64,000 nucleotides of DNA from Rhina ancylostomus. Its lineage: Eukaryota. The DNA is taken from positions 22,636,213-22,700,212 of the forward strand of contig JARFYF010000012.1 in assembly GCA_030265395.1 (NCBI GenBank). Reading direction: 5' to 3'. Below are positions 32,086-35,259 of this stretch, piece by piece. The notes under the pieces were generated by a model. That model made no database searches. It was given only the letters and a program-made list of their open reading frames with translations, and was not told the origin of the DNA. Numbering within the stretch: the stretch's first letter is position 1; every line of letters starts with the position of its first letter. Position numbers and translations under genes: made by a program.

Positions 32086-32206
32086 AACATAGAAACACAG
32101 AAGCATAGAAAAACCTGCAGCACAATTCGGGCCCTTTGGCCCACAAAGCTGTGCCGAACATGTCCCTACCCTAGAAATTACTAGGCTTACCCATAGCCCT
32201 CTATTT
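32086..32206 (-). mobile_element. CR1 3' tail forming the left end of the GC-rich cassette
   Basis: Reverse complement: gagggctatggg...ttcggcacagctttgtgggccaaagggccc...(tttctatg)n. Confidence 0.9.
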
Positions 32207-32441
32207 NNNNNNNNNNNNNNNNNNNNNNNNNNNNNNNNNNNNNNNNNNNNNNNNNNNNNNNNNNNNNNNNNNNNNNNNNNNNNNNNNNNNNNNNNNNNNN
32301 NNNNNNTGTGTCCCCGTGGATTGGGGTGCGATCCTTCCCTCCCCACACATGTTCACCGTCCTGTCATTTTGAACGCAGGATGACTTCCCCAGGACACACG
32401 CGGTGGCTTTTGGAGGTTGCGGCCCACATGACGCATCTCAC

Positions 32442-32645
32442 CTCGTCACAGGCTGAACATCGGGGCTTCATGAGCTCGGCGTGGTGACGCCCACAGTGGA
32501 TTTTGCCGCCTTGGTAGAAGTAGATGAGGTCAACGAGCAGCTCCTGGCAGGTGGAGCAGCTGAAGCACGCCGGGTGCCAGCAGACCGTGGAGCCCGCCCT
32601 GGAGACGAATATTGCAATCTCACCGCCGTTTATCTTCTCCTTGCA
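32442..32645 (-). CDS. prickle1: Isolated PRICKLE1-type exon (most of LIM1 and start of LIM2), 204 bp, phase 0-0; probably a transposed gene fragment
   Basis: [68 protein letters not shown] with acceptor tatatcttccag| and donor GAG|gtgaga. [20 protein letters not shown] favours Prickle1 over Prickle2. Confidence 0.9.
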
Positions 32646-32950
32646 CTGGAAGATATAGTGGGGGAGGGTGATGGGTGAGGTGGATGGGCAACCACATCCT
32701 CGTTCAAGGTACTGCAGCAACACATGAACGGCCAGGTTTACTGAAGATTTAGGAAGAGCCCAAAATTGAAACTGGACACCAAACAGAAAAAAAACAGCAG
32801 GTCCAAGGGACACCTCACCATCTGCTCAGAGCTGCTGAGACTTCACCCAATGACGCTGGTCAGCCAGGAGGTCGTTCGCAGCCAGGATTATAATGGATTT
32901 TATACCAGAATCAAAGATCTTTAGATTTACTGACCAATTCTAATTCATCT

Positions 32951-33832
32951 GAAAGAAACCAAGCAAGAGTTGAATTGGATTTCTGACTCCCTGGATTCCC
33001 AATACCTCTCGAGGGCCTGAGTTATAGGGAGAGGTTGGGGCAGGCTAGGACTTCATTCCTTGGGGCATAGGAGACTGAAGGGTGACCTTAGAGGTGTATA
33101 AAATCATGGGGGGCACACTGGCAGCTTTAAGGAGTAATAATCACTCTGGCTGCTCCCTGATAGTCAAGGGTCCTGCAGACACAGGGGTGGCCCCAACGTG
33201 ACTCGCTCCTGTGCCCATCTTGGGAGGGAGAAGCCCCTCGGTGGAGGCATCGGACCCGGGCAGAGTCTGCGGGTTTACTTTCGTCCTGACTCCCTGAAGC
33301 AGCGGGGATACCCTTTTCTGGTCTCCTCACCAGCTGTCCCAGAAGGACACACCATGGGGGGCCTTGTACAGACAATGTGCAAGGATGGACTCAGTCCAGG
33401 GATACTCCACAATTAAGAGTCATGGAAACAGGCCCTTTGGCCCAACTCGTCTGTGCCGACCAAGATTCCCATCTGAGCCAGTCCCATCTACGTGCATGGC
33501 CCATGTCCCTCTAAACCTTTCCTATCCATCTACCTGTCCAAGTACCTTTTAAATGTTGTTCTTATACCTGCCTCAACCACTTCCTCTGGCAGCTCGTTCC
33601 ATATACGCACCATAAATCTTTCCCTTCTCACCTTAAACCTCATGTTTTCGATGCCCTTTCTGTATCTATGCCCCTCATGATTTTATACACCTCCAAGGTC
33701 ACCCCTCAGTCCCCCACACTCCAAGGAATGAAGTCCTAGCCTGCCCCAACCTCTCCCCACAACTCAGGCCCTCGAGAGACACTGGGAATCCACGGAGTCA
33801 GAAATCCCACTCAACTCTTGCTTGATTTCTTT
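32951..33832. repeat. Inverted repeat pair, arms about 165 bp (32951-33114 and 33669-33832)
   Basis: Arms are reverse complements and share the same CR1-to-unique junction at ctcgag. Confidence 0.9.
33415..33775 (-). mobile_element. CR1 3' fragment with internal deletions
   Basis: gagtcatggaaacaggccctttggcccaac tail, similar to 1075-1500. Confidence 0.9.
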
Positions 33833-33981
33833 TAATGTACAAACATCTTCCCCGTGACTGAGATTTAAGTTACACTTTCAACATTTCAGCAGTGTCTATT
33901 ATACTGGTGTTGCGTTAAAGGAATAATAATTCATTGTTTACGCAAACATGTGAAAGTTTTAATAGACGTTGAGAAGTGGGG

Positions 33982-34200
33982 CGGGCATGGTAGAGTAGCA
34001 GTAACACTACTGCAGTGCCAGTGACCAGGGTTCAATTCCGGCCACTGCCTGTAAGGAGTTTGTACATTCTCCCTGTGTTTGCTTGGATTTCCTCTGGGTG
34101 CTCCGGTTTTCTCCCACACTCCAAAGACATAAGGGTTAGTAGGTTAACATGGGTGTAACTGGGCAGCGTGGGCTCATTGGGCCTGTTACTGTATAAATAA
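33982..34200 (+). mobile_element. V-SINE-type tRNA SINE
   Basis: B-box gggttcaattcc, core gagtttgtacattctccc, CR1 tail; homologous to 9715-9958. Confidence 0.9.
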
Positions 34201-35064
34201 CGTTTCAGTTGACCGTGTTGCTGTGTCCTTCCATTCAATAGGTTTTGGCAGTGATTTTCCTTCCCCCCCACCCCGCCCCCCACTCACACCGGGATGTGCA
34301 GTTACAGCTACCAGCTGCAGTTTGAGCCTTGCGTGAAGTGACTGCTACCGTCTGTGGAGGGTATTCAACGACAGGACCTGGGGAGACGAGCGTTCTTCTG
34401 CCCATGTTGCATTCACATTCCCATCCCCTCCTCCCACAGCTCACGAGACAGCAGTCTCACCGAGCTGCTCCCTCGCCAGCACCCCCAGCCCCACCCTCCC
34501 ATATCCTCTCCCCTCCCCGGGGCACAGGCTGAGTGGAAGCAGAGTCTTGCCTCTGTGTCTCTGCAACTGGACAACCACCATAAAGTGAGGTGTGTTTAGT
34601 TCCGTCAGGATTTCCAGTAATAGGCCAGGCAATCCCAACGGAACTCAACACGAGGACACTGCACTCCTCCGAGGTGGATTTTCTCCTCCGCCTTTCCTGC
34701 TGAAGTCGGTGCAGGAGAGCGGGTCCGATGGACCAGAGCCAGTGGATGTGCCACAATGGTCCCGGGTAGGAAGGATCTCAAGGAGACAGGAGTGAGGAGA
34801 GGGTCGGGCTCAGCCGGGGTCACCTCCAGAGCCCGAAATATTCACCAATACGACAGCCTGTTGGCTCCCGGCCAGCTGTGCTGGTGGGATTCACGTCCAG
34901 CGCGACTCTCGTGATCTCGGGGAAGGAGAGAGCCAGAGGGAGCAGCCGGATACATGGTTGTCTGCGATCTGTTCCTCTGTACCTGATCACAGACCATGTG
35001 CATCAACGCCCTGAGCAGTTGTTTGATGGTTCCTCATCCCAGAGCCTCTTTCTTCCTCTGCACA

Positions 35065-35259
35065 CTGAACACACTGCCAGCAGAGGTTGTGGGAGCAGAT
35101 ACATTAGGGACATTTAAGAGACTCTTAGATGGCCACATGACTGGTAGAAAAATGGAGGGCTATGTGGGAGGGAAGCGTTAGATTTTAGAGGATAAAATGT
35201 CGGCACAATATCATGGACCGAAGGACCTGTACTGTGCTGTAATGTTCTATGTTCTGTAT
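35065..35259 (+). mobile_element. CR1 3' fragment forming the right end of the GC-rich cassette
   Basis: NTLPAEVVGADTLGTFKRLLDGHM, then 3' UTR and gttctatgttct tail. Confidence 0.9.

Follow-up and report, generated by a model that had tools for sequence, protein, structure and literature searches.

A decayed duplicate of prickle1 between two outward-facing LINE 3' ends in Rhina ancylostomus

Judged from its sequence, an unspliced block of about 2.8 kb at 32307-35071 of the window (the whole 64,000-nt stretch analysed here, G000:C12:22636213-22700212 of Rhina ancylostomus) is a decayed duplicate of prickle1 lying inside an old LINE. At each outer junction stands the 3' end of another LINE. These two elements, LINE-B and LINE-C, belong to different LINE subfamilies with thousands of candidate copies in the genome; their tails face outward, directly abut the host LINE, and are 5 bp apart in the target. 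We call the block a decayed duplicate because a parental island on scaffold C29, 92% identical to it, keeps intact codons, because the window has a TGA for a parental CGA, and because all four coding differences between the two change the protein. The duplicate that includes the LIM exon is very probably real, and the prickle1 fragment is probably functionless. As to its origin, we regard as an even bet a single retrotransposition event into the old LINE, in which both break ends would have been extended by a CR1-type reverse transcriptase (RT) and the products annealed at a 5-nt microhomology.

Structure of the insertion

The host LINE is on the minus strand. Its left half (31683-32085), from the RT region, has about 60-70% identity to other copies, and its right half is at 35260-36091. 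A preliminary description had read these flanks as two halves of one LINE, and 14 of 25 loci match both halves collinearly. It had also estimated a loss of about 5 bp with no target-site duplication (TSD). Amongst 17 loci printed across the site, nine clearly show a spacer of 5 bp, CCTCC or some variant of it, and two have a more diverged spacer; two others have a 6-bp spacer, and four have unrelated sequence. Since intact copies carry the spacer and read VVVVGGQS at the insertion site, the 5 bp absent between 32085 and 35260 were lost from the host LINE. The insert junctions have this 5-bp deletion instead of a TSD, so both parts of the estimate stand.

LINE-B (32086-32206, minus strand) is a 3' end with a repeat tail facing left, interrupted by an assembly gap of 100 N (32207-32306). 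LINE-C (35067-35259, plus strand) is a 5'-truncated 3' end of 193 nt with a repeat tail facing right; its junction with the host LINE lies within a single contig, as had been described. Both tails are short tandem repeats, with no poly(A). Taking best matches only, the mean identity to the 10 best copies is 94.3% for LINE-B and 92.7% for LINE-C. From the repeat tails and ORF2 motifs, both appear to be CR1-type LINEs, a label for which we take the C-terminal ORF2 motifs of longer LINE-B and LINE-C copies to be characteristic; an RVT_1 match in one of the four frames tried (E=0.0035) is below the cut-off. The self-comparison of the window reveals no pair of terminal inverted repeats of one DNA transposon. 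In another old-LINE copy (L050, G000:C1:136372985-136373281), a LINE-C tail is likewise present at nearly the same point; the search selected for such cases, so this may reflect either coincidence or a favoured site.

All of the prickle1 sequence is on the minus strand. From left to right, it comprises intron downstream of the LIM exon (32307-32441), the 204-bp LIM1 exon (32442-32645), a 2337-bp intron (32646-34982) kept without any intron removal, and the 3'-terminal 89 bp of the exon that precedes LIM1 (34983-35071). The LIM1 exon was recognised in the preliminary description as a 204-bp Prickle1 LIM exon, and it has an open frame of phase 0-0, intact AG/GT ends, a Pfam LIM domain (E=4.2e-9) and a ray prickle1b as its top homologue (95%). 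Relative to Mobula it has only three amino-acid changes, somewhat below a rough neutral guess of about six, and the three variant residues are present in 17, 2 and 4 of 120 homologues. It is not the lone prickle exon of the window, as had been thought: the 89-bp piece is found by tblastn (E=8e-10). That piece is 5'-truncated, retains its donor site, and has the stop codon at 35036-35034, where the parental island has an arginine that is kept in all 98 motif-matching homologues among the 120 examined. Intronic flanks had also been described for the LIM exon; intron does adjoin it, but 32086-32206 and 35067-35259 are LINE 3' ends.

The rightmost five bases of the exon piece, GAACA (35067-35071), are common to prickle1 and LINE-C and form the 5-nt microhomology. 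The parental side of this joint is taken from a contig of organism D, which aligns up to 35071 and continues for 173 further letters.

The captured intron includes CR1 pieces, a SINE and an inverted duplicate. The inverted duplicate (164 bp, 89.6%; 32952-33115 and 33669-33832) is composed of about 55 bp of unique sequence and a CR1 piece. It is probably older than the prickle1 capture, since contigs of organism C extend over a large part of each arm. The SINE, at about 33975-34204, which we take to be HE1-like, is likely inherited from the parental gene, as contigs from organisms C and D continue into the beginning of the element.

Adjoining the gap, 26 unique bases (32307-32332) are matched by a contig of organism B and unmatched by the contigs of C and D. 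We considered and rejected 32307-32345 as LINE-B sequence (best score 27, versus 25-29 in five shuffles). The true size of the gap is probably about 100 bp or less. Of 31 gaps of 100 N in the assembly sequence examined, six can be measured against other repeat copies, which is possible only for gaps inside repeats; their true sizes range from -54 to +104 bp. In the parent, the distance to the next prickle1 exon is no less than 1355 bp. Given these sizes and this distance, further prickle1 exons within the gap, as the preliminary description had suggested, are unlikely.

The block is also distinct in composition, in agreement with its first description as GC- and CpG-rich relative to its surroundings. 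It has a GC content of 0.529 and a CpG o/e of 0.45, versus 0.39 and 0.16 in the flanks; the maxima in flank windows of the same length are 0.43 and 0.29.

The parental gene

A genome search with a full-length ray protein places the parental prickle1 at C29:6273165-6292272, where residues 11-116 and 226-828 are accounted for by seven matching stretches. For residues 128-227 the best match is the window. The duplicated part of the parent falls in two N gaps (C29:6279371-6281816 and 6282429-6284249), the first of which, with 2446 N, fits the missing parental stretch in size; altogether there are nine N gaps in the 20 kb of C29:6272000-6292000. Between these two gaps there is a 612-bp island (C29:6281817-6282428) that is identical to the window (34426-35039) at 563 of 614 positions (91.7%), with 44 transitions, 5 transversions, and identical runs of up to 66 bp. 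The two share 57 coding bases, the stretch in which the four protein-changing differences fall. Parental prickle1 has a GC content of 0.499 and a CpG o/e of 0.46, which matches the block. The parent on C29, the matching composition, the two diverged copies and a left junction spanned in two organisms support the earlier proposal that unspliced DNA of a host gene was truly inserted here from another compartment.

The assembly has no parental copy of 32307-32860 or 33116-33420. The 92% island on C29 is assembled; the parental LIM exon is unassembled, in N gaps. LINE-B is absent from the 14,060 assembled parental bases, and the relevant intron is an N gap. The preliminary description had allowed for the case that this is the only copy of the exon and that the rest of the gene flanks the window. 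The LIM1 exon here is indeed the only assembled copy, but the rest of prickle1 is on C29, and we reject that reading. The sole assembled LIM1 exon is probably the dead copy. From the parental gene model a whole exon and a portion of a second are missing, and an annotation made on this assembly would be without LIM1.

Elsewhere in the genome, at C94:28.45-28.48 Mb, C53:5.29-5.32 Mb, C29:26.37 Mb and C94:40.46-40.48 Mb, there are another two prickle paralogues with several exons and a pair of less closely related PET/LIM genes. These loci are putatively prickle2-, prickle3-, testin- and LMCD1-like. A paralogue as the donor was rejected: the next-best matches to the exon have identities of 70, 69, 52 and 50%, versus 92% for the C29 island (DNA).

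Contigs from related samples

The contig comparison uses four of 14 runs (X1-X4) and the matches listed for them. X1 is possibly the assembly's own sample, and X2 is organism B. Where X1-X4 leave the block uncovered, it is excluded as evidence, and a contig is said to span a junction when it has 31 letters on the far side. By this rule the left junction is spanned in X1 (contig 31603-32147, 62 letters on the tail side) and in X2 (contig 31300-32166, 81 letters). At the right junction, the LINE-C tail is present over 27, 30 and 30 letters in contigs from organisms B, C and D, which is under the 31-letter rule. Among the contigs listed, none covers the joint of exon and LINE-C or links LINE-B to 32307, and among the matches listed for runs X13 and X14 there is no orthologous contig (region 31880-32100).

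Two copies can be told apart in both X1 and X2. X1 has two contigs over 34734-34985, with 0 and 21 differences from the window. X2 has two contigs over 34610-34806, one of which has the window state at 34640, 34702, 34766 and 34776, while the other has the state found in the parent and in organism D. From the window state at these four sites in X2, the duplication is older than the split of organisms A and B.

To the left of the point where they start to match, the contigs from B, C and D each continue for 47-93 letters and then end, as if a repeat lay at that point in the parent too; this is a weak hint as to how prickle1 entered the insert. A contig with T at 33005 was considered as proof of a parental copy and rejected, as the inverted duplicate has the same letter.

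Relation to known insertions

Section 7 of Mendez-Dorantes et al. (PMC11702581) describes L1 insertions for which two oppositely oriented RNAs served as templates and whose joint shows microhomology or untemplated bases. As they are presented in that section, the reverse-transcribed ends face apart, the join is by internal microhomology and host sequence is carried. The prickle1 insert resembles them in having an outward LINE 3' end at each junction and GAACA at the internal joint. Those insertions come from human experimental cell models, whereas the one here is CR1-type, germline and seen across species, is 2.8 kb in length with introns, and has an RNA template that is only proposed. By analogy, the prickle1 insert may work like the two-template L1 insertions, as a candidate member of that class, and it may be their germline CR1-type counterpart. 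L1 bridges with two poly(A) tails, in the portion of 10.1101/2024.08.27.596794 used here, similarly have a LINE 3' end on each side and concurrent priming, but they link two chromosomes in tumours, whereas here the ends are joined to adjacent halves of one LINE.

Other classes are a poorer match. Class 2 templated insertions, in the part of Onozawa and Aplan (PMC5110952) drawn on here, share a distant donor, the absence of a TSD and microhomology. The experimental ones are 73-414 bp in length, and LINE tails on either side, as in the prickle1 insert, do not figure in that part of their description; with LINE tails as both outer junctions, a plain class 2 insertion is not a fit. Single-copy Pack-TIRs made by gap-filling, in the portion of Tan et al. 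(PMC8277862) that describes them, likewise have a host fragment of exon and intron inside a repeat and microhomology at the breakpoint. There the filler is within one DNA transposon, whereas here it is between two different LINE 3' ends, and since its ends come from two LINE subfamilies the prickle1 insert is not a Pack-TIR. It is also not a processed retrocopy or class 1 TSIP, because there is no TSD, the intron is kept and the tails are repeats. As judged from literature listings in which subscription journals are mostly uncovered, neither a CR1 insertion of such a form nor the locus itself has been described, sharks and rays included. The two-tail anatomy is unusual.

Origin of the insertion

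In the single event, the left end would have been primed on LINE-B RNA, with synthesis continuing into prickle1 sense sequence. Entry into prickle1 could have been by read-through of the pre-mRNA, if LINE-B lay within a prickle1 intron, or by a template switch from LINE-B RNA onto the pre-mRNA. The right end would have been primed on LINE-C RNA and halted after 193 nt, and annealing of the two products at GAACA would have closed the insertion. We argue for one event because the tails are 5 bp apart in the target, because the internal joint has microhomology, and because the divergences of the three parts are similar (identities of 91.7% for prickle1, 92.7% for LINE-C and 94.3% for LINE-B). Two separate insertions that abut the target within 5 bp would presumably be rare. 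The orientation of prickle1 was rejected as evidence for an RNA template: there is one LINE on each strand, so either orientation is sense to one of them.

More generally, and as a doubtful extension, CR1-type LINEs might be able to capture kilobases of unspliced host pre-mRNA via intronic CR1 3' ends, with a second LINE RNA closing the insertion. If so, this would be a route to germline exon duplication in CR1-dominated genomes, marked by two outward-facing tails, and it may recur in rays; the two-tail signature is searchable genome-wide. Hitch-hiking on intronic CR1 ends would also be a way round the strict recognition by CR1 of its own RNA.

That strict recognition, to which a review (PMC5470649, in the part cited here) ascribes the limited range of RNAs moved by CR1, speaks for a DNA template instead. 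Two CR1 ends at a break would then have been followed by a microhomology-guided switch onto the C29 gene, from which 2.8 kb of genomic DNA was copied by gap-filling or as a class 2 templated insertion. We consider this possible but rather improbable. It agrees with the fully kept introns, the 5-nt microhomology, the 5-bp deletion and the absence of a TSD, and in the portion of PMC8277862 used here most single-copy Pack-TIRs are explained by microhomology-guided gap-filling. Against it, both LINE tails must still be primed at one site. The distances and sizes also differ: extra genomic templates are near the integration site in the L1 study (PMC11702581, in the part used), while here the donor is on another scaffold, and tumour templates, as given in the part of 10.1101/2024.08.27.596794 consulted, are typically shorter than 250 bp and come from no more than 15 bp away, versus 2.8 kb.

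The single event also has to account for organism D, in which there is a single prickle1 copy among the contigs listed and yet a LINE-C tail at the site, a combination that calls for either a subsequent deletion or insertion in two steps. In two steps, LINE-C would have been inserted first, and LINE-B with prickle1 later at the 5' junction of LINE-C, only in the ancestor of A and B. The LINE-C tail at the right junction of both C and D, together with the one prickle1 copy of D, favours such an order, which we nonetheless hold to be unlikely. A second nick would be needed within 5 bp of the first junction. The contigs of C and D cease matching at 32066, with 32 and 22 loose letters, and these organisms lack 32067-32085, which A, B and the intact old-LINE copies have; theirs is thus a derived allele in any case, and a single deletion would account both for this loss and for the one prickle1 copy of D. 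At 8.3% from its own parent and 9.4% from the copy of organism D, the duplicate is also at a similar distance from each, which fits an event before the split.

Less probable again is a partial assembly chimera, in which only about 34300-35071 is duplicated and the part with the LIM exon is true parental sequence, misjoined. The only assembled LIM exon is in the window, with the 2446-N parental gap of fitting size; its open frame and intact splice sites, the identical runs of up to 66 bp between the copies, and the single contig listed over 32307-32760 in each of X1 and X2 can all be read in this way. However, contig breaks occur at 32766 in organism A and at 32756 in B, a stretch that the contigs of C and D cross uninterrupted, and the X1 depth at 32692-32865 is about doubled (8.96 versus 4.6); this pattern points to a second copy at that place. 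The exon region of the window differs from organism B at 25 of 450 positions and from D at 55 of about 650, as many differences as in the proven duplicate, and the glycine at position 47 is found in 2 of 120 homologues.

Finally, the symmetric 204-bp exon might have been recruited by a host transcript at its new location. Its open frame, phase 0-0 and two intact splice sites could be cited in favour, but such recruitment is highly improbable, as the neighbouring exon piece is decayed and none of the 136 other frames scanned (at least 72 aa, from a window with 548 frames of at least 45 aa) has a host-gene domain above the Pfam cut-off. The sole above-cut-off Pfam match is a GDSL/SGNH esterase frame at 46746-47054 on the minus strand (E=2e-9), in a CpG-rich kilobase, and this frame is likely ORF1 of a young LINE.
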